DNA from: a virus
Lineage: Duplodnaviria; Heunggongvirae; Uroviricota; Caudoviricetes
DNA length: 45,792 nt
IMG/VR virus record: IMGVR_UViG_3300037225_000328
Span: 1-45,792 of that record
Reading direction: 5' to 3' (one strand)
In this document: piece by piece, positions 2,205 to 16,531 of the stretch
How the letters are laid out: each line of letters starts with the position of its first letter
Numbering within the stretch: position 1 is the first letter of the stretch
Translations under genes and position numbers: made by a program
The notes under the pieces: generated by a model
Database searches by the model: none
Told to the model about the DNA's origin: nothing
What the model saw: the letters and a program-made list of their open reading frames with translations, nothing else

Positions 2205-3215
2205 TTAGTCATCTTCATATCCGTTGCGAGATCGTCCGTGAACTCGAAAACGACGGCGGTAAAACTCGCTAATCCGTTGCCCGCCGGCATTGTCCCAAAC
2301 GAAGCACAAACTCTCAAATTGGGACTGTGCATCTCCATTAAACATTTCGTCAATCTGGTCATAAGTCATATCCTTGACCGCATCCACAAATCGCGTATGC
2401 GCGATAATCCAGTACATGATGGTTTTTGCATGAAGCGTTCCATCATGCAAGCGAACCTCAAAAGTCTTGTGCTTGCTGTATGCTTGCAGATTGAGGTAGT
2501 TGTACCGATCCGAGTCACTGAAAAAGCTGGCAATTGACCCGCGACAGTCACGAATCGCGCTTGCTGAATACCGAGGGGCATGGCAATAGAAACTATCGCA
2601 AGCCCGATACTCAGAGACTAGACCGCGCCAAGCAACATAACTCTTAGCATACGCATAAGCGACATGCCGCAATTGAACGGTAGTCTCATCACGCATGTCA
2701 AGGTGCAAATGATAGCCACAGTCATCATTTACAGTATAACCATGCTCATCGGCCCAACGACAGAAATTTTCAACTTCTGTCAAACCCTCATCACCGTACA
2801 GGATCGGGGTAAAAAACTCCATCCCCCGAACACTGCAATCATACTTAGCGCCAAAAAGGGTTTTACCCTTCAATTGACGGTAATCATCGCAAGAGTGAGT
2901 TTCCAACTCAATCCCAAACTTTCGCTTGCTTGCGATGTTCCCATAATGGGCGATGGAAACCGGGCTAGGAGTCGGCTCCCACGTATCTCCTGCGCGGTAG
3001 CATTCCTCACAAATTCGGACATTATCGCGGGTTCGTCGGCTACAGTCAAGCCACCGGACTTCATTGCACTCCGGGCAAATGAAGCAATAGGCCGTCCAAC
3101 AGCGGGAGCAAAACAAACTCCCATCCGGAGCCCGTTGCATCAAATCATCATAATGCTCTTCCCGGCAGTGACAGCAAAGGCTCCGAGTACGAGTAATGGT
3201 AGCAGTGTTAGGCAC
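2205..3215 (-). CDS. putative amidoligase (COOH-NH2 ligase, PF12224-like) with 2 N-terminal Zn-ribbon repeats
   Basis: FGIELET, KYDCS..GMEF..PIL, CGYHLHLD, RYNYLN..A, TFEVRLHDGTL motifs; CxxC...CxxC repeats; GTG start with AAAGGG SD. Confidence 0.85.
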   Translation of the reverse strand: MPNTATITRTRSLCCHCREEHYDDLMQRAPDGSLFCSRCWTAYCFICPECNEVRWLDCSRRTRDNVRICEECYRAGDTWEPTPSPVSIAHYGNIASKRKFGIELETHSCDDYRQLKGKTLFGAKYDCSVRGMEFFTPILYGDEGLTEVENFCRWADEHGYTVNDDCGYHLHLDMRDETTVQLRHVAYAYAKSYVAWRGLVSEYRACDSFYCHAPRYSASAIRDCRGSIASFFSDSDRYNYLNLQAYSKHKTFEVRLHDGTLHAKTIMYWIIAHTRFVDAVKDMTYDQIDEMFNGDAQSQFESLCFVWDNAGGQRISEFYRRRFRVHGRSRNGYEDD

Positions 3216-3252
3216 TTGTTTCCCTTTCGTTAAGCGTGTTGAACTCTACTTA

Positions 3253-3280
3253 ACTATACCTCATTTTTACAGGTTGTCAA
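3253..3280 (-). promoter_or_regulatory. sigma70-like promoter (leadered)
   Basis: TTGACA-16nt-TATAGT upstream of amidoligase 1. Confidence 0.75.
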
Positions 3281-3762
3281 GTAGTTTTCCAGGTTCGACC
3301 GTGTTTAATACCTGCAATAGCCCCGGAACTAACATTAAATTCTCTGGCAACTGTCGCACGACTTTTACCAGTTTTAAGTTGTTCACGAATTAAAATGACT
3401 TTTTCTTTTGTAAGGATTGCGCGGGGATTTTGTTCACCACTATTCGTTTTTCGCCCACGACGGTATGCTTGGAGCAGATTTTCGCGTTGTGTATCTTGCA
3501 TCAAATGTTTAGGATTTACACAAACAGGATTATCACAACTATGTAAAACTCCTAACGTATTATCAATTTTTCCATAATATAGAAAATATATAATACGTGG
3601 AGCATACCGTACTTGACCACGATGTCCGCATGAAAATACACCCCGGCCCTCCCAATTTACATTGCCAGACCATTGCCAACAACCATCGCTTTTAGTAACA
3701 TTGCGCCAAAAGCGAGCAAGCTGATTTTCTGTTAAGATTGGTATTGGTTTGTATTCAGGCAT
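3277..3762 (-). CDS. HNH homing endonuclease with C-terminal HTH
   Basis: CWQW.G, VLHSCDNPVCVNPKHL, GEQNPRAILT motifs. Confidence 0.9.
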   Translation of the reverse strand: MPEYKPIPILTENQLARFWRNVTKSDGCWQWSGNVNWEGRGVFSCGHRGQVRYAPRIIYFLYYGKIDNTLGVLHSCDNPVCVNPKHLMQDTQRENLLQAYRRGRKTNSGEQNPRAILTKEKVILIREQLKTGKSRATVAREFNVSSGAIAGIKHGRTWKTT

Positions 3763-3769
3763 AAACGGT

Positions 3770-3799
3770 AGGCCCGCTAACCCGATTGTTAGCGGGCCT
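3770..3799 (-). terminator. hairpin between GATase and HNH
   Basis: AGGCCCGCTAA/TTAGCGGGCCT 11-bp inverted repeat. Confidence 0.6.
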
Positions 3800-3848
3800 T
3801 TCCTTCTGACAGGGTTGCAAAGATCCTACCGACGATCTCAAAACCCCA

Positions 3849-4721
3849 TTAACTCTTTTGCCCATCATCGGTTTCATCCATGCTTCCGCTGTATTGAGCC
3901 CAAGCTTCCCTCCAATCTTGGTCATAGTCCTTCACATTGGCACCCGCGCCCACATACTCATCATCCTCCCACCGCGAAGTGCTAGCGCCCTTACCGCTGG
4001 TGTAAACCACCCGACCCTGACGCTTGCCCTCATACCACTCCGTAGTATTGCTGCATCCGTACTTACGCCCCCAGTATTCCGGGGCTTGCGACACAAACGG
4101 GGCAACCACTTCAACCTTACCATCCTGAGAGAAGCGGATAGTCTCACCCTCACCTACGGCCTTGATTGTATCACTATGACCGATACACTGCGCTAGATGT
4201 TTGGCGCTAGAAGAGTAGTACCAAACCCCTCGATACTGGCCGTAATGAAGTTCCCCATTGTGAACTTGGAGATAGAAGTATTCCCCGTCAAACCAGGAAA
4301 CCCCCCAATATCCGCAAACCGTCCCCCAAGCGCTGTTATAGTCGCCCTTGTGCTTAGCAAGGGAATCAAACAGGAATTGGGAATCCACGGCATAACCATC
4401 CGGGGCGTCAACAATACCATTGTGCGCTCCGATGATTCGGCCGTAGCGGAAGGGGTGAGAGTTGCGGCGGTTTACTGCGCCCCGCGTAGCGAGTCGCGTA
4501 TGCCCTGCCACAAACCACGTATCACACTCAGACCGCTCTAACCAAGCGGAGATGTTCTTTTGCTGTAGACCCTCAGACGGAGTAACGGCCGCCTTGATCA
4601 TCTTGCCGGTTGAATCGAAGAAACCAAGGCTATCGGTTCCCCGATTTTCATTGGCAAGCACAAGAGCGCGGAGGATTCCGAGATTCCAGCCTTTACCAAT
4701 AGCTCCGTATATGCCGCACAA
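3849..4721 (-). CDS. class II glutamine amidotransferase (Ntn), start revised to TTG-Cys
   Basis: (M)CGIYG N-terminus after AGAGGA SD; RGTDS.G, HTRLAT.G, N.HPF, HNG, DS motifs. Confidence 0.85.
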   Translation of the reverse strand: MCGIYGAIGKGWNLGILRALVLANENRGTDSLGFFDSTGKMIKAAVTPSEGLQQKNISAWLERSECDTWFVAGHTRLATRGAVNRRNSHPFRYGRIIGAHNGIVDAPDGYAVDSQFLFDSLAKHKGDYNSAWGTVCGYWGVSWFDGEYFYLQVHNGELHYGQYRGVWYYSSSAKHLAQCIGHSDTIKAVGEGETIRFSQDGKVEVVAPFVSQAPEYWGRKYGCSNTTEWYEGKRQGRVVYTSGKGASTSRWEDDEYVGAGANVKDYDQDWREAWAQYSGSMDETDDGQKS

Positions 4722-4824
4722 AGTAACTATCCTCTTATTAAACCACGTAGACCGGAAACCTATAGTGTCAAGGTTAATCACCGGGGCGGAAGGGGCTTAA
4801 TTGTTCCTTGCCGCTCTATAATGA

Positions 4825-4852
4825 AGTATACCTGATTCAAGGCAAAAGTCAA
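4825..4852 (-). promoter_or_regulatory. sigma70-like promoter (leadered)
   Basis: TTGACT-16nt-TATACT; -35 overlaps HNH stop codon. Confidence 0.7.
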
Positions 4853-5364
4853 GCAGGTTTTTTCGGAATCCCTGTTAGCCAGGACCAGCTAGAACCGTGC
4901 AAAACATGTTCTATGGCACGACCCCGACAACCAATAATTCGTGCAAGTCGAGTTGCACCTAGCGGTTTTCCATTGACAATTTGCTTATGTAGCTTTACAA
5001 TCTGTAAGACCTGCTTTCGAGTCAAAACTGCTTTATGCTGCTTTTCTCCTCGGATAGGATTACCGTTTCGATCTCGATCTGCGGAGTTTCTTGCGCCATT
5101 TCCTGGATAAAGATGCTTGGGATTAACACAATCAGGGTTATCACAAGTATGACACGTCATGTTACCGGCATCACCATATTTAATCCAACAAGCAACACGA
5201 TGCGCTTTATACCAATCCCTTACTCCAAGATGAGGATGATAAATGCCATAACCATCTTTATCGTGAGCACCTAACCAATTCCAACATTCATTAGGAGTCC
5301 GTTTTTCAACAAAATCCCAAAAATGCTCTATATCCTCAGAAGTTAGGATAATGGGCTTGGGCAA
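4849..5364 (-). CDS. HNH homing endonuclease with C-terminal HTH
   Basis: CWNWLG, AHRVA, CHTCDNPDCVNPKHL, GEKQHKAVLT. Confidence 0.9.
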   Translation of the reverse strand: MPKPIILTSEDIEHFWDFVEKRTPNECWNWLGAHDKDGYGIYHPHLGVRDWYKAHRVACWIKYGDAGNMTCHTCDNPDCVNPKHLYPGNGARNSADRDRNGNPIRGEKQHKAVLTRKQVLQIVKLHKQIVNGKPLGATRLARIIGCRGRAIEHVLHGSSWSWLTGIPKKPA

Positions 5365-6348
5365 CTATAGTCCCCTCCCCGCCATTGATACATCCGCTAG
5401 TGTCCGTCGATTATGAGGTACTCGCCAGAATTGGGCATAATACCGGGCAAGCCGGGGGCCTAGAATCTGGCGCATGGTGCGCTTTGCGCGCCGCTCATCT
5501 CTGAACATATTGCGGATCCGTGCAAATGTCTTATCCTTGACAAAATCGACAAATCGCAAATGCGCAACAATCCAGTTACAAATCTCCGGACCCCGAAGAG
5601 TCCCCTGATACCCCCGAATCTCAACAGTCTTATGACTCCCCCAAGCCCGCCAATTGATAAACTCGTAGCGGGTCAAATGTCGGGCAAATGTGTCAAAACT
5701 GGCCGCATTAAGCACGGTTTCGGCTTCATAGTCCGGAGGGCGACAAAAGCAATTTCTCAATCGATCAGGATCCACCAGCTTTTGCCACAATTCGATGGTT
5801 AATCGGTAGGCATAAGCAAGATGCCGACGTTGCAAACTAGTAGATTCGCGCAGATCAATGTGAACGTGAAAACCGCACTCATCATCAACCTCAAAGTGGT
5901 TTTGATGGGCAAGTCGGCAGAACTTGCGAATCTCCGCTAATCCCTTGTCCCCTTGGAGAATAGGAGAAATAAACTCTAGCCCGCTAATACTTCCATCCTC
6001 TTTAGCGCCAAAACAAGTGTGCCCGCGTAACCGAATATGATTAGGACAATCGGCAGTTTCTAATTCAACCCCAAAACAGCGCTCACTATGCGTTTTGATG
6101 AACGTATTAGCGGATGAATGAAACTCTGTTTCCCGCCAACGGGAAATAGCAGACCAACAATCATAACAGATAGGTTGCCCGCGATCATTGCGCTGAGTAT
6201 CATCCCGAGAAGCAACGTTCCCGCAATCAGCACAAAGGAAATAGCGGGAACTAAAGCAGCGCTGACAATACACATACCCGCAGGCCCTTTGGCTTGATTC
6301 GGCCGTAACGGGGCACCCACATTGATCGCAATGGCTTCTAGCTGGCAT
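5365..6348 (-). CDS. putative amidoligase with 2 Zn-ribbon repeats (leaderless)
   Basis: FGVELET, KEDGSISGLEFISPIL, CGFHVHID, RYEFIN, TVEIRGYQGTL. Confidence 0.85.
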   Translation of the reverse strand: MPARSHCDQCGCPVTAESSQRACGYVYCQRCFSSRYFLCADCGNVASRDDTQRNDRGQPICYDCWSAISRWRETEFHSSANTFIKTHSERCFGVELETADCPNHIRLRGHTCFGAKEDGSISGLEFISPILQGDKGLAEIRKFCRLAHQNHFEVDDECGFHVHIDLRESTSLQRRHLAYAYRLTIELWQKLVDPDRLRNCFCRPPDYEAETVLNAASFDTFARHLTRYEFINWRAWGSHKTVEIRGYQGTLRGPEICNWIVAHLRFVDFVKDKTFARIRNMFRDERRAKRTMRQILGPRLARYYAQFWRVPHNRRTLADVSMAGRGL

Positions 6349-6354
6349 GATTCA

Positions 6355-6382
6355 AGTATACCCTACACTCGCAAAAAGTCAA
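6355..6382 (-). promoter_or_regulatory. sigma70-like promoter
   Basis: TTGACT-16nt-TATACT-6nt-ATG. Confidence 0.8.
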
Positions 6383-6591
6383 ATGGAATTTTCGACCGTA
6401 TAAAAGGCCAATCGAATAATTCCCCTCGCTGGGTCAAATCCGATAAGTTCAATCCATCTCATACCGGCGTCACCGCCATTAACATATATTTCTCTCTTCC
6501 GTAAGAAAAACTTGGTAGCAGAATCAAGAGTATCAAAATCGGTAAATTGAGCGTAAACAGAATAACCCCGAACAACCGAGTATCTATACAT
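6379..6591 (-). CDS. hypothetical protein
   Basis: ORF in operon-like run. Confidence 0.6.
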   Translation of the reverse strand: MYRYSVVRGYSVYAQFTDFDTLDSATKFFLRKREIYVNGGDAGMRWIELIGFDPARGIIRLAFYTVENSI

Positions 6592-6592
6592 C

Positions 6593-7030
6593 TTATATCC
6601 CCTGTCCTACAAACTGTGCCACCGGAATAAACGGCTTGATGCGAATTTGAGCGACAGTGTTATATTGCCGGAATTCGCCAAGTCCATACATTCTGTTAAG
6701 ATACATACGCACCGCCGACTTTACATTTTTAGCCTCAATCTTGAATTCGCGCTCACTTTGACTGTATTTGACATAGATCGCGGCCTTATCAGAACGCGGT
6801 AATTGTTGCACAATTGCAATCGGATAGAAAACTGTTTTCATTCCGATCGCATTGATACCGGCCGCGTATACTGTCCAGTCACTAAAATCATTGGGATCTA
6901 GCTTGTCATAGTCTAACACCATAGGCGTAGCACGTGCGCATATTAAGTGCCCGCCGCAATGTTTACCATGCAACGGTTTTCCACCTTGCACAAGGATAAA
7001 CGTCGTTATTTGTGGTTTGTGTAATTGCAT
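6593..7030 (-). CDS. hypothetical protein
   Basis: 145-aa ORF with GAGG SD. Confidence 0.7.
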   Translation of the reverse strand: MQLHKPQITTFILVQGGKPLHGKHCGGHLICARATPMVLDYDKLDPNDFSDWTVYAAGINAIGMKTVFYPIAIVQQLPRSDKAAIYVKYSQSEREFKIEAKNVKSAVRMYLNRMYGLGEFRQYNTVAQIRIKPFIPVAQFVGQGI

Positions 7031-7041
7031 AGTAAACCTCG

Positions 7042-7072
7042 AAAGAAACCGGCGGGCGGTTAAACCCGCCGG
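7042..7072 (-). terminator. intrinsic terminator
   Basis: CCGGCGGG/CCCGCCGG stem then TTTCTTT. Confidence 0.75.
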
Positions 7073-7085
7073 CTTACCATATTCA

Positions 7086-7292
7086 TCACTTCTTACAACG
7101 CGCCAGCGCTGCTAAAACATCTACCACGGCCCTTTGCACCATTACCAGTATCAGCCCTTGACCGTTTCTCAGACCGGCTACGAAAACTGATAGAATAGCG
7201 CCAACAGCGGTGCCCGCTAAATAAACGGGAACCGTTGCGACAAGACCAGTATAGACAATAACCCTGCCCAGTACCTTTAGTACCTTACGCAT
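7086..7292 (-). CDS. small hydrophobic/membrane protein
   Basis: long hydrophobic stretch VIVYTGLVATVPVYLAGTAVGAILSVFVAGL; AAAGG SD. Confidence 0.65.
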   Translation of the reverse strand: MRKVLKVLGRVIVYTGLVATVPVYLAGTAVGAILSVFVAGLRNGQGLILVMVQRAVVDVLAALARCKK

Positions 7293-7348
7293 GATTAAAC
7301 CTTTCTATCGGAATTATACGGCCTTGATGCATCATTCATCTTATCCGC

Positions 7349-8743
7349 TTAATGGGGAGCTTCATCCAAATCGTAATAAAACGCTTCTCGTCTAGGCGCA
7401 TCGACCACCCACGCAAATGGACGTTGCGGAGCCCGCCGCGCTGGTTGGGGCCTAAGCGATTTATGCCATTCTTCGGATTTTCTGATCCAATACTCCGCTA
7501 ACTCAGGACCAATAATCTCCGCAATAGCGACAAAATCCTCGCGGGGAGTGTTATGGAAAAGACTGTCAAGTTCCGAAAAACTCTTATCCTTGACAAAATC
7601 AATAAATCGGGCGTGAAGGATAAGCCAGTTACAAATCTCCTCAGCGTCAAGACTGCCTTGATACAATCTAACCTCAACACTGCCATGAACCAAATAAGCC
7701 CGCCAGTTGACAAACTCGAATCGGTCACGCTTTCCGACAAAGTAGTCAAAATCCTCATGGGTAATGTCGCTACTCTCATAATCAGGAGAACCGCAATAAC
7801 GGTTATCACTGCGAGAATTAGGCACTAAGGAACACCAGACCTCATAAGTCCTACGATACGCATAAGCTATTGCTTTCAGCGAATCGGTAGACTCAGTGCT
7901 TACATCAAAGTGAGCATGATAGCCACATTGCCTACTTACCTCAAAATGCAACTCTTCGGCCCGCTGGCAGAATCGTTCAATTTCTTCTAATCCTTCATCT
8001 CCATACAAAATGGGCGAAACGAACTCCATACCCTCAATAGAACAATCATGCTTACACTCCCAAATGGTGTGACCATTAAGAACATTATGATCAGGGCATC
8101 GGTAAGTTTCCAATTCTACCCCAAACCGCCGCCTTGAACCGATACGATCATAATGAGAATCGGAAACGGTAAAACTGCCCATTTCCCACTCACTCGACGG
8201 GCGGTAACAATCACGGCAATAAGGGCGATCATCCGACCATTGGGCCGAATCGTTCCATAACGGGTTTCCACAACCGCTGCAATTTACGCACAAATCATGG
8301 AAACATTCATCACAGTAATAGCTATCGCCAGGGGTGCGAAAACGTTCCCGTTGATGGAATGTTTCCTCGCAATTGTCACAAACGAAAAATCGACGATCAA
8401 AGCATCGGGCGCAATAGTGTTCATTATCTGGCCCGACAGTCGCCCGCCCCCGATTTACTTCCCGACCGCAACCGTAGCATTGCGTAAACATACTATCATA
8501 ACAGTAGTCACAATAGAAAGTTCCGTTACTAGAGATTCGCCCATCTTCGCGGACAATATACTCTTGACAATGACAACATTGTCGAAAAAGCATCTCAAAG
8601 CAAGCCGGGCAGTAGGAAAATCCATCCGGCCCTTCGTGGGCTTCTGTTAATGGCTTATTGCAATGGCTACAAAACTCTGCCACTTGGCGCACCGGGGGCG
8701 TAGACTCAATACGCGTACCGGGAAATGGGCGCTGGGTTGGCAT
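7349..8743 (-). CDS. putative amidoligase with 5 Zn-ribbon repeats (leaderless)
   Basis: five CxxC-x(13-15)-YCxxC repeats then FGVELET, KHDCSIEGMEFVSPIL, CGYHAHFD, RFEFVN, SVEVRLYQGSL. Confidence 0.87.
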   Translation of the reverse strand: MPTQRPFPGTRIESTPPVRQVAEFCSHCNKPLTEAHEGPDGFSYCPACFEMLFRQCCHCQEYIVREDGRISSNGTFYCDYCYDSMFTQCYGCGREVNRGRATVGPDNEHYCARCFDRRFFVCDNCEETFHQRERFRTPGDSYYCDECFHDLCVNCSGCGNPLWNDSAQWSDDRPYCRDCYRPSSEWEMGSFTVSDSHYDRIGSRRRFGVELETYRCPDHNVLNGHTIWECKHDCSIEGMEFVSPILYGDEGLEEIERFCQRAEELHFEVSRQCGYHAHFDVSTESTDSLKAIAYAYRRTYEVWCSLVPNSRSDNRYCGSPDYESSDITHEDFDYFVGKRDRFEFVNWRAYLVHGSVEVRLYQGSLDAEEICNWLILHARFIDFVKDKSFSELDSLFHNTPREDFVAIAEIIGPELAEYWIRKSEEWHKSLRPQPARRAPQRPFAWVVDAPRREAFYYDLDEAPH

Positions 8744-13937: not shown

Positions 13938-13965
13938 ATTATACCTTATTTCGAGTAAATGTCAA
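13938..13965 (-). promoter_or_regulatory. sigma70-like promoter
   Basis: TTGACA-16nt-TATAAT-6nt-ATG. Confidence 0.88.
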
Positions 13966-14474
13966 ATTTTATTCAATACGGCAAAGGGACCACGACATTT
14001 TATTGCGGCTTCATTATAGGCTCTTGCGGCATCTTTCTTATTAGTAAAAATCCCCAAAAAACTTTGTTTACCTTTAACTCGAATATTAGCTACCCATTTA
14101 TTTCTTCGTTTATCCTCAGTAACACCCGTGTATCCCGATGTATTATTTTTACGCTTACCTTGATTCGAGTTACTTTGTGAATCTGTTGCAATTCGCAAAT
14201 TACTTCGTTGATTATTTAATCCATTTCGATCTTTATGATCTACTTTTTTATCTTTAATATTAAGATGCATTCTTTCAGCAATAGCTTGATGCATTCGTAA
14301 TGTTACAAATTTTCGACAACCACACAGTCTACAGGGCTTTGTTTTTGAAAGATTTCTTTCGGCATAAAAAGTTATTCTATTTTTATGCGCGAACCACTTC
14401 CATTGCATTAAGTAAGTATAATCTTTATTAGAGACTAATACAAACTTGCCTTGTGTGAGCGGAATTCGTTTCAT
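13962..14474 (-). CDS. HNH-AP2 homing endonuclease
   Basis: IPLTQGKF, VDHKDRNGLNNQRSNLR, NTSGYTGV, AARAYNEAA. Confidence 0.92.
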   Translation of the reverse strand: MKRIPLTQGKFVLVSNKDYTYLMQWKWFAHKNRITFYAERNLSKTKPCRLCGCRKFVTLRMHQAIAERMHLNIKDKKVDHKDRNGLNNQRSNLRIATDSQSNSNQGKRKNNTSGYTGVTEDKRRNKWVANIRVKGKQSFLGIFTNKKDAARAYNEAAIKCRGPFAVLNKI

Positions 14475-14476
14475 AG

Positions 14477-14773
14477 TGGAGATGCCGAGAGTCGCACTCG
14501 GGTCTTAATTGCTTCTAGTGGTATATCTACATACATAGTTATTCGTTATTCAACAGCCCAAATAACTCGGCTGATCTATAAATGTACATCAACTGTCAAT
14601 TACTAACGACTTCTGCTACATTGACACTTACAGTTGTCTTGGCAGCTTTACGCAGCCAGTGCTAATTGCGGTTTGGCAATTAAATAATTTAGTCAGCTTT
14701 TAACGTGGCCAACTGACTAACCACGGTATGCAACACTTCCTGTTCACAATTAATCGAAACCTACTTCATCCCC
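14477..14773 (-). ncRNA. ssrA: tmRNA
   Basis: 5' GGGGATG pairs with 3' CATCTCC-A (G3:U70); T-arm CCGAG-TGCGACT-CTCGG; tag ORF 14648-14677 AKPQLALAA-stop. Confidence 0.92.
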
Positions 14774-14783
14774 ATCGTACCTT

Positions 14784-14951
14784 TTACGGTACAACTCGCC
14801 TCAATTCACGAGCCACATACTCATAAACACGCCGGACTTCTGTACCAAGTAGCGTTACCGCAGGTATCGCTACAATCGTAATTAGTGCCAATAGCACTGC
14901 ATACTCGACGGCTGCCGGCCCATCCTCAGAAACAAGAAACTTACGAATCAT
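14784..14951 (-). CDS. flp: Flp/Tad (type IVb/c) pilin, 55 aa (not in ORF track)
   Basis: MIRKFLVSEDG/PAAVEYAVLLALITIVAIPAVTLLG: G-cleavage, E+5 Y+6, hydrophobic helix; AAAGG SD. Confidence 0.85.
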   Translation of the reverse strand: MIRKFLVSEDGPAAVEYAVLLALITIVAIPAVTLLGTEVRRVYEYVARELRRVVP

Positions 14952-14954
14952 TGA

Positions 14955-15182
14955 CTAACCTTTCAAAAAAGAGGAACAAGAAACAATAAATGATCCATTG
15001 CGCCAATCAGGCGGCGACTGCGGTATACACGGATAAACCGGATACGGAGGCATGGGTGGATCCATTGGAATAACTGGTCCCCACGGACGAGTTGCCTTGG
15101 CATGACAACGCTTACATCGCCCAACACCTTCCATATCTGTTTCAACCGGCCCGCCACAAATTGAACAAGTTCCAATGATCAT
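14955..15182 (-). CDS. small Zn-finger, Pro-rich protein
   Basis: CSIC...CKRC; GGAGG SD supports start MIIGTC. Confidence 0.65.
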   Translation of the reverse strand: MIIGTCSICGGPVETDMEGVGRCKRCHAKATRPWGPVIPMDPPMPPYPVYPCIPQSPPDWRNGSFIVSCSSFLKG

Positions 15183-15197
15183 ATTTAATACCTCCAG

Positions 15198-15264
15198 CGA
15201 TTTTGGTTGGACTCGAACCAACATTCACACTTCGACTTAATGTAAACCCCAACCTGGCAAACTC
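15198..15264 (-). pseudogene. degenerate tRNA-like element (GTC at anticodon position)
   Basis: T-arm GTTGG-TTCGAGT-CCAAC, stem ACATT/AGTGT with 7-nt loop, 6/7 acceptor pairs; poor D-arm. Confidence 0.35.
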
Positions 15265-15335
15265 TGTTGGATCGGACTATGACCCCGATCCAAGGTTGTC
15301 CCGAATTCAACACCCGAATACAACCATGCCGAGCA

Positions 15336-15821
15336 TTAGACCTTATTTAATACTGCAAATTTGCCAAAATATTTTAATGCTGCTTTATTATAGGCTTTAG
15401 CAGCTTCTTTTTTACTGGTAAAATAACCTAAATGAATATCTTTTCCATTTATTTGAATCTTAGCTTGCCATTTATGGCTATCTTTTCGCCAATGTACACC
15501 TTTATAACCAGATGTATTATTCCGTTGTTTAGGTCGATTTATTCCATTCTGAGATACTGTTGCGAGTCTTAAATTTAAGCGTTGATTATTTAATCCATTC
15601 TGATCAATATGATCTAATGTGTCACTCGCTAAAAGACCCATTCTTATAGCAATGATTTGATGCATTTTTATTGCAGTTTGTTTTAACTTGCTCTGAACAC
15701 ATCGAACAGCATAAAACATACCACGATGTTTAGAGGCACACCATTTCCACTGTATTAAGAATTCATAATCTTGATCATCAACCAAAGCAAACTTATCTTG
15801 CGTAAGTTTTATCTTTTTCAT
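15336..15821 (-). CDS. HNH-AP2 homing endonuclease
   Basis: LTQDKFALVDD, DHIDQNGLNNQRLNLR, NTSGYKGV, AAKAYNKAA. Confidence 0.92.
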   Translation of the reverse strand: MKKIKLTQDKFALVDDQDYEFLIQWKWCASKHRGMFYAVRCVQSKLKQTAIKMHQIIAIRMGLLASDTLDHIDQNGLNNQRLNLRLATVSQNGINRPKQRNNTSGYKGVHWRKDSHKWQAKIQINGKDIHLGYFTSKKEAAKAYNKAALKYFGKFAVLNKV

Positions 15822-16023: not shown

Positions 16024-16379
16024 ATCCTATAAACGGGCACTGGGATAGCAGCGATTGTACCAACCGGCTGACCACCCAGCATCACGGTGACATTGTAAGG
16101 AAGAGACTTGGGCTCTTCGAGAGTAGAGAGATTGAAAAAGCTAATCAGTCGTGTCAACTCTTCCACTCGATTCCAAGTTCGACCAATCCGATAATTCGTA
16201 TCCGGATTGCTCTCTTGGTTCATTAGAATATGAGCGTCCTTCTTTAGGCCATCAACTTCATATTCGAGAATATGCTTAATATCAGAAAAGGCCGGTGGAC
16301 ATTCGACTACAGTACAAATATACTCTTCACCATTGCGGCCGTGAATACATACGTTATACGCGACTACTTGGGTCATCAT
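16020..16379 (-). CDS. hypothetical protein
   Basis: start revised to MMTQVV with GAAGGG SD inside tatA. Confidence 0.65.
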   Translation of the reverse strand: MMTQVVAYNVCIHGRNGEEYICTVVECPPAFSDIKHILEYEVDGLKKDAHILMNQESNPDTNYRIGRTWNRVEELTRLISFFNLSTLEEPKSLPYNVTVMLGGQPVGTIAAIPVPVYRI

Positions 16380-16497
16380 CAATTCCCTTCTTGAATTCAC
16401 GGATTCCTTGCCCTAGACTTCGCATCATATTTGGCAGTCTATTACCGAATAGGAGCAAAGCGACGAAGGCCAGGATAAGAATTTCCGCAAGCTTCAT
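16354..16497 (-). CDS. tatA: twin-arginine translocase subunit TatA/E, 47 aa (not in ORF track)
   Basis: MKLAEILILAFVALLLFGNRLPNMMRSLGQGIREFKKGIDD: TM-FG hinge-amphipathic helix-EFK; own leaderless promoter. Confidence 0.88.
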   Translation of the reverse strand: MKLAEILILAFVALLLFGNRLPNMMRSLGQGIREFKKGIDDDPSSRV

Positions 16498-16503
16498 ATT
16501 ATA

Positions 16504-16531
16504 ACTATACCATGAAAAAAGCCTTTGTCAA
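16504..16531 (-). promoter_or_regulatory. sigma70-like promoter for tatA unit
   Basis: TTGACA-16nt-TATAGT-6nt-ATG. Confidence 0.82.

Follow-up and report, generated by a model that had tools for sequence, protein, structure and literature searches.

An orphan Flp/Tad prepilin gene of Planctomycetota type retained in an apparently virulent tailed phage

The window analysed here, a stretch of 45,792 nucleotides, comprises the first 45.8 kb of the 109,792-bp IMG/VR record IMGVR_UViG_3300037225_000328 (G000 in what follows), which is estimated to be 84% complete and has an overall GC content of 41%. Nearly all long open reading frames (ORFs) are located on the (-) strand, both in the window and in the whole record, and the phage genes include those for the major head (capsid) protein, a scaffold protein, a 1307-aa tape-measure protein, DNA polymerase, helicase, primase and exonuclease. 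The phage further encodes three amidoligases and a glutamine amidotransferase, several tRNAs and a tmRNA. Judged by its gene content, the record is that of a genuine tailed phage. Its capsid protein and polymerase exhibit only remote matches among cultured phages, none of which is a close relative, and megablast and tblastn searches with the region and with the Flp protein described below against 50,697 phage records yielded no match. Neither a tyrosine nor a serine recombinase (integrase, resolvase) was found in this 84% complete record, and the phage thus far looks virulent, the record being incomplete. The three amidoligase genes are paralogous and are arranged around the glutamine amidotransferase-like gene at 2205-8743 (-), as identified by PHROG matches; an Amidoligase_2 gene is kept also in a related metagenomic contig (L006, see below).

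The gene of interest, flp, encodes a small Flp/Tad prepilin and is embedded between a zinc-ribbon ORF and the tmRNA gene. The features of the locus, together with the capsid gene of the same record, are:

14784..14951 (-), flp, 55-aa Flp/Tad prepilin gene, assigned by family, homology and model evidence and under purifying selection when compared with the L006 copy
14919-14951 (-), flp leader, codons 1-11, the last being Gly11
14787-14918 (-), predicted mature 44-aa pilin, codons 12-55
14784-14786 (-), flp stop codon TAA
14959..14964 (-), Shine-Dalgarno-like GAAAGG, 7 nt 5' of the flp ATG, read directly from the letters
14955..15182 (-), proline-rich 75-aa ORF with a zinc ribbon (CxxC-x14-CxxC), listed as 14955..15224
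14474..14773 (-), tmRNA gene with tag AKPQLALAA (ARAGORN; Rfam 107 bits)
16504..16531 (-), promoter-like TTGACA-16-TATAGT (11/12, with TG) ahead of tatA, a consensus match only
13938..13965 (-), promoter-like TTGACA-16-TATAAT (12/12), a consensus match only
97132-98586 of the record (equal to L004:14133-15587) (-), capsid protein gene, which defines a large uncultured phage clade (loci L180-L259)

The translation of flp, as given in the ORF listing for 14784..14951(-), is MIRKFLVSEDGPAAVEYAVLLALITIVAIPAVTLLGTEVRRVYEYVARELRRVVP. The stop codon TAG of the zinc-ribbon ORF is located one codon ahead of the flp ATG in a shared frame, the tmRNA gene begins 10 nt past the flp stop, and two HNH-AP2 homing-endonuclease genes lie on either side of this zinc-ribbon-flp-tmRNA block. 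The opposite strand holds ORFs of only 32-34 aa at flp. Both promoter-like sites are strong matches to the sigma-70 type of consensus. Judged by this match, the site at 16504..16531 is a candidate start of a unit tatA ... HNH ... zinc ribbon-flp-tmRNA-HNH, of which the site at 13938..13965 is likely the downstream limit. The gene behind the former, near-consensus promoter, at 16354-16497 (-), encodes a TatA homologue of 47 aa (PF02416, E=3.6e-11) that is unmatched in PHROGs and NCBIfam. Upstream of the zinc-ribbon gene, the 161-aa HNH-AP2 gene at 15336-15821 (-) is missing from an otherwise matching metagenomic contig (compare L264:378-1142), and variation in presence of this sort is typical of a mobile homing endonuclease. 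The zinc-ribbon ORF itself has no match in Pfam, PHROG or NCBIfam. At 15197-15264 (-), a perfect T-arm (GTTGG-TTCGAGT-CCAAC) is part of a weak 68-nt tRNA-Asp(gtc)-like call obtained only at a relaxed ARAGORN threshold, and a search of 15150-15400 against Rfam gave neither a tRNA nor any other match. Since this call overlaps the first 14 codons of the zinc-ribbon ORF as listed, the start of that ORF is probably at 15182.

A preliminary description of this DNA had noticed a 55-aa ORF with a prepilin signature and a hydrophobic helix between a zinc-finger gene and the tmRNA, and the database searches confirm it far beyond chance (Flp_Fap E=2.4e-5; 1190 phmmer relatives). The Pfam model Flp_Fap (PF04964) aligns with residues 5-46 at 24.5 bits, and a six-frame search places a Flp_Fap match of 23.6 bits at flp; a Flp_Fap hit, the lack of which would have spoken against the original idea, is therefore present, albeit with a score under the Pfam gathering cut-off of 32.2. 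The same model is matched by 12 of the 13 nearest relatives in our alignment A1 (best 9.3e-12), while PHROGs and NCBIfam leave flp unmatched. An exhaustive phmmer search of 1.84 billion representative proteins yielded 1190 relatives at E<=1e-3, the best ranging from 1e-14 to 4e-17, whereas a word-index homology search had found just one. The ORF at 14784..14951(-) is a real gene and encodes a full-length Flp/Tad prepilin. The view that it had been missed by ORF calling is not true of public gene calls: these already contain the exact 55-aa product, identical on at least nine contigs from several samples and with unchanged neighbours.

The sequence comprises a short charged leader followed by the cleavage motif (MIRKFLVSEDG/PAAVEY, that is, G/XXXXEY), and residues G11, E16, Y17, A22, L23, I24 and G36 are invariant in alignment A1. 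The profile derived from A1 matches solved Tad pilins, namely 8u1k (2.5e-9), deposited as PilA, and 8u2b (2.7e-8), deposited as a Flp family type IVb pilin. Since the match starts at chain residue 2, opposite profile position 19, the mature N-terminus is expected at or beside Pro12. The AlphaFold2 model (pLDDT 87) exhibits a short leader helix (residues 2-8) and then a single long helix (residues 11-53), and the protein thus has the architecture of a small pilin in which one hydrophobic helix runs into an amphipathic tail, without a globular domain. A Foldseek comparison of the model with the PDB gave no match and is uninformative, because the model is nearly a bare helix.

When compared with 143 close relatives, the phage protein is in part entirely regular and in part unusual. 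Its mature length of 44 aa is close to the median (43), and the proline at position +1 is the rule of the clade (137/143). In contrast, proline at mature position 19 is shared by only 2 of the 143 and the leader, at 11 aa, is shorter than that of the relatives (about 17), so that recognition by a prepilin peptidase is not guaranteed. The C-terminus had initially been described as unusually basic. This stands for the arginine count, since the tail contains 5 Arg as against a mean of 1.26 K/R and at least five basic residues are reached in just 2.8% of the relatives; it does not stand for the net charge, which is only +2, a value reached by 16% of them.

The closest bacterial relative (P0006, 65% identity) is located in a tad locus with the gene order flp-Peptidase_A24-TadE-RcpC/CpaB. 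More generally, an A24 peptidase gene is present within 8 kb in 64 of 80 bacterial flp loci, and any tad gene in 66. By title, 78 of the best 80 genomic relatives belong to Planctomycetota (Pirellulales, Planctomycetales, Gemmataceae, Phycisphaerae). The genome collection was scanned with the pattern GP[TA][AT][VT]EYAV, which is the signature of the Planctomycetota clade itself, so that the motif can be called planctomycetal but the census is not unbiased. The earlier statement that the N-terminus is of the Planctomycetota type is thereby borne out, with the reservation that the search pattern was built on that same motif. In a metagenome scan with the phage-type Flp, no relative exceeded about 67% partial identity. 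The two exceptions among the 80 both behave as Planctomycetota: a metagenome-assembled genome (MAG) labelled 'Actinomycetes' (L069; JAUXAG010000015.1) shares its GTDB phylum sample with a Gemmataceae genome, and a bin labelled 'Candidatus Nealsonbacteria' (L035; JABMRB010001191.1) comprises 9.1 Mb with a planctomycete-like tmRNA; probably, these labels are wrong or the bins are mixed.

No such assembly genes accompany flp in the phage. Their absence from the window had been pointed out previously; it holds, and extends to the entire 109,792-bp record (84% complete), in which neither PF01478 (A24 peptidase), PF00437 (T2SSE), PF00482 (T2SSF) and PF07811 (TadE) nor, by tblastn, any match to tad genes was found. 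A pilin homologue is therefore present in a bona fide virus genome without assembly machinery. Taken together, homology and gene content uphold the identity put forward at the outset, that is, an orphan Flp prepilin which is encoded by a phage, is of Planctomycetota type and would rely on the TadV/CpaA peptidase and the Tad machinery of its host.

The next question is whether the phage lineage keeps the gene. The best match overall is a protein of 54 aa (P0004; 69% identity over 51 residues) encoded on the 9.8-kb metagenomic contig L006, which runs colinear with the window from position 18.6 kb to 2.5 kb, the encoded proteins being 35-65% identical; L006 is a related phage that has flp at the corresponding position. 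Comparison of the two copies yields dN=0.30, dS=1.90 and a dN/dS of about 0.16, values that derive from one close phage homologue and 53 codons with dS being near-saturated. Codon positions 1, 2 and 3 are identical at 38, 42 and 21 of the 53 codons. Most differences fall in the C-terminal tail and the distal part of the leader, and the cleavage site and the helix core are kept. Hence, the phage lineage maintains flp under purifying selection. Moreover, the GC3 values of four phage flp copies (0.38, 0.43, 0.67 and 0.76) climb with the GC content of the respective phage (0.41, 0.48, 0.51 and 0.63), which indicates that the copies have adjusted in composition to their respective genomes and are long-term residents, not assembly chimeras.

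These data bear directly on the possibility that there is no meaningful phage gene at all, the ORF being due to chance, to an assembly chimera with host DNA, or to a decaying passenger. The gene is short, its score lies under the Pfam cut-off, and the record is a metagenomic contig, all of which one might raise in favour of such a view. It is nonetheless barely credible given (i) that the identical product recurs on those nine or more contigs from several samples next to the same phage genes, (ii) the syntenic homologue under purifying selection, and (iii) an intact frame with a Shine-Dalgarno site and a GC3 that fits the phage.

Three IMG/VR contigs carry a Planctomycetota-type flp, two of which share one sequence. 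By comparison of whole records, the flp-bearing phages G408 (66.7 kb, GC 48%) and G409 (55.8 kb, GC 62.5%) are distant relatives of the present one: G408 has colinear replication genes in common with it, and G409 colinear structural genes. Identities are 30-69% in both, and the capsid protein aligns at 55%. The Flp of G409 exhibits 69-74% full-length identity to Pirellulales-type pilins as compared with 45-49% to the other phage copies, and the Flp of G408 scores 55-58 bits against bacterial pilins as compared with 34-48 bits against phage copies; the copies of G000 and L006 alone are reciprocal best matches. A capsid-based scan of IMG/VR identified 295 members of the clade, with 51-62% identity among those listed; its records reach up to 175 kb and include two proviruses. 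When 12 long members (67-175 kb, six of them at least 90% complete) were searched with the Pfam model and with a clade-specific profile that detected three positive controls, flp was absent. Since flp is sporadic and the Flps of G408 and G409 resemble bacterial pilins more closely than one another, it appears to be a repeatedly captured accessory gene, and the pattern is explained most simply if flp was captured at least three times in one phage clade and was then retained.

The surroundings of the phage copies offer several additional observations. In G409, flp (L089:7980-8156 (+)) is located between the opposite-strand ORFs L089:6896-7639 (-) and L089:8776-9567 (-), the N-termini of which look serine-recombinase-like by eye, and the region may represent an invertible or mobile cassette. 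In two distantly related phages flp adjoins the tmRNA gene, at 10 nt in G000 and with one 79-aa ORF between the genes in G408 (tmRNA L091:7391-7708 (+); flp L091:7980-8174), and in L006 flp is found about 290 nt from a tRNA-Ile(tat) gene (L006:3716-3789). The tRNA/tmRNA islands of flp-bearing phages thus seem to gather accessory genes. Joint capture of flp and tmRNA from one host locus was also considered and was rejected, as a tmRNA gene is present within 8 kb in 0 of 80 bacterial flp loci.

The tmRNA is informative for the host as well. Its tag (AKPQLALAA) is one residue off AEPQLALAA from a Gemmataceae MAG, and all tags recovered from Planctomycetota (AEPQLALAA, ANKQFSMAA, ANKQYALAA, AEKQYALAA and ANDNFALAA) likewise comprise 9 aa; the tag of the G408 phage is AEANYALAA. 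Of 401 Planctomycetota genomes sampled, 27 contain a match to the phage tmRNA, mostly over nucleotides 37-134 at 73-90% identity, and neither E. coli genomes nor the 50,697 phage records, which form a weak out-group, gave a blastn match; an out-group through the above-mentioned 'Actinomycetes' MAG L069 is void because it falls into the same GTDB phylum sample as Planctomycetota. Against a planctomycete host speaks the GC content of the phage, which at 41% is low for most Planctomycetota. On balance, the tmRNA and the pilin point with good probability to a planctomycete as the host.

The arrangement of the zinc-ribbon ORF and flp, which share a frame and are parted only by TAG-TCA, raises the question whether occasional read-through of the TAG might yield a prepilin of 132 aa whose leader would include a large cytoplasmic domain, to be freed by cleavage. 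Public gene callers indeed report a 132-aa fused product on two short contigs. They do so, however, only when TAG is read as Q, and the TAG is retained in the DNA of all contigs seen. Although TAG is used least often as a stop (14 of 116 long ORFs), we found neither a sign of global TAG recoding nor a suppressor tRNA in the present phage. Furthermore, flp owns a Shine-Dalgarno site and an ATG, a shared frame has a one-in-three chance of occurring, and in 135 other loci scanned no zinc-finger was present upstream of flp; N-terminal extensions of bacterial Flp proteins turned out to be mis-called starts. Read-through is accordingly very improbable. A genuine zinc-finger-Flp fusion was rejected on the same evidence, that is, a product seen under TAG=Q only, no second locus with an upstream zinc-finger, and no recoding.

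An orphan prepilin can act only through host proteins. The prepilin peptidase and the Tad platform recognise the leader-proximal residues E9, D10 and G11, E5/Y6 of the mature part and the assembly helix; since these are intact and have been preserved by selection, cleavage by host TadV/CpaA and entry into the Tad pathway are to be expected. Our favoured reading, to which we give somewhat better than even chances, is that flp is functional, derives from a host and encodes a major Flp pilin of Tad (type IVc) pili. A large, apparently virulent tailed phage, whose host is probably a planctomycete, would carry it as an orphan accessory gene that acts through the host Tad system. During infection, the prepilin would insert in the inner membrane, where the host prepilin peptidase (TadV/CpaA) would cut it after Gly11. 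The cleaved phage pilin could then enter the host Tad assembly pathway and co-polymerise with the host pilin, replace it, or jam assembly. Tad pili occur widely as organelles of adhesion and are known to serve phages as receptors, and in Tad filaments the tail of the pilin constitutes the exposed surface. The parts in which the phage subunit differs from host pilins are the proline in the helix and the arginine-rich tail. Most likely, the pay-off would be a pilus surface that is changed or lost, such that neither the progeny of the phage itself nor other phages that bind pili could adsorb to a cell already infected. We slightly favour exclusion or remodelling, given that the phage looks virulent and its subunit is atypical. 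The original suggestion of a decoy or variant pilin that confers superinfection exclusion or altered adhesion would hence fit the anatomy of the protein, as well as precedents in other pili. In its most specific form, namely that a clade of large, apparently virulent Planctomycetota phages repeatedly captures a major Tad pilin and that the altered subunit is built into pili or poisons their assembly, the proposal is a tentative one.

Two other functions have to be weighed. The protein might be a repurposed, flp-derived single-pass membrane peptide, either holin-like or an inhibitor that titrates the peptidase or the platform, and never be part of a pilus. A single transmembrane helix followed by a highly charged C-terminus (5 Arg, 3 Glu), the short leader, the proline within the helix and the lack of pilus genes in the phage would all suit such a peptide. 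A plain membrane anchor, however, would not need a cleavage motif, and yet this motif, E5/Y6 and E9/D10/G11 are kept or replaced conservatively (P0004 has S in place of D10) despite 31% divergence; in addition, related phages captured host-like flp independently, which argues for selection on the pilin nature as such. We therefore regard this possibility as improbable.

Alternatively, flp might be an auxiliary gene for an assembly-competent subunit that sustains or boosts Tad pili, either in the course of infection or in a carrier state, and keeps the host attached or in a biofilm, rather than serving as an anti-phage defence. The mature length is normal, as are all residues critical for assembly, and the N-terminal assembly helix is the most conserved part of the protein. 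Viral precedents can be cited as well: the archaeal pleolipovirus SNJ2 encodes pilins that come to form the dominant pili, with promotion of biofilm formation and motility (PMC12426801), and the Flp of Vibrio harveyi prophages was interpreted as an adhesion factor (PMC12482185). With no integrase found in the 84% complete record, on the other hand, a lasting benefit to a lysogen is unlikely, and a lytic phage would gain little from adhesion of its host. The rarity of Pro19 and of the Arg-rich tail likewise suggests a changed subunit rather than an equivalent one. All in all, a purely auxiliary role seems rather unlikely to us.

Returning to the favoured reading of a functional pilin that acts through the host Tad system, the phage protein corresponds to the Flp/Fap pilins of Tad systems in its size, in its Gly-ended leader, in the G/XXXXEY motif with E5/Y6, and in the single long helix, first hydrophobic and then amphipathic, of a mature peptide of about 44 aa, and its closest bacterial relatives reside in canonical tad loci. 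It differs from them in that tadV/cpaA, cpaF, tadB/C, tadE and rcpC are all missing from its genome, and by its 11-aa leader, the proline at mature position 19 (2/143 relatives), the Arg-rich tail and the Pfam score below the gathering threshold.

The notion that a phage-borne pilin gene is very unusual has lost ground in view of pilins published for phages, prophages and other viruses. The P-FimU protein of a Pseudomonas prophage is built into the type IVa pilus and blocks the adsorption of tip-binding phages (Sztanko et al., Cell Rep 2026, PMC12952977). The same study describes PilA-like (P-PilA) proteins in Pseudomonas and Xylella phages, non-temperate ones included, for which early superinfection exclusion was suggested; Flp and Tad go unmentioned there. 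As in the present case, a copy of a host pilus subunit is carried by a phage without the machinery. P-FimU and P-PilA, however, belong to type IVa pili (a minor tip pilin or PilA), whereas the present Flp is a major Tad (type IVc) subunit, and the function of P-FimU was demonstrated (PMC12952977), whereas that of Flp is deduced from its sequence.

For SNJ2, the pilins PilA1 and PilA2 are assembled by host PilB/PilC and dominate the cell surface (Xiang et al., Cell Rep 2025, PMC12426801), the resulting pili serve as the receptor for a second virus, and related viruses captured pilins from their hosts several independent times. Orphan viral pilins and repeated capture are common to both cases, and the hijacking of host machinery, known for SNJ2, is proposed here; in contrast to the archaeal type IV pilin of a temperate provirus, the present pilin is a bacterial Flp, and its carrier is a tailed phage that appears to be virulent. 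Finally, Flp pilin genes have been annotated in the V. harveyi prophages phi345 and phiGANI1709 (mSphere 2025, PMC12482185). These are likewise phage-borne Flp-family pilins recognised by sequence, but they belong to temperate Vibrio prophages of another host phylum and are read in terms of adhesion and virulence; the available text contains no conservation or selection analysis of them.

Hence, virus-encoded orphan pilins are already established, Flp in prophages has already been annotated, and the present gene does not represent a new kind of system. New are the purifying selection, the repeated capture within one clade, and the probable Planctomycetota host. The literature searched contained neither a report of phage-borne Flp in Planctomycetota phages nor phage-receptor studies for Planctomycetota.

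If our reading holds true, the principle of slipping a pilin into the pili of the host, which acts as an anti-phage defence in type IVa pili and as a biofilm and receptor factor in Archaea, would extend to type IVc pili. Should the altered-subunit proposal prove correct, this would be the first phage-driven pilin replacement for Tad (type IVc) pili, and it would indicate that Tad pili are a main phage receptor in Planctomycetota. With its natural variants, a gene of just 55 aa may thus provide a cheap and concrete handle on the interplay of phages and hosts in this phylum.
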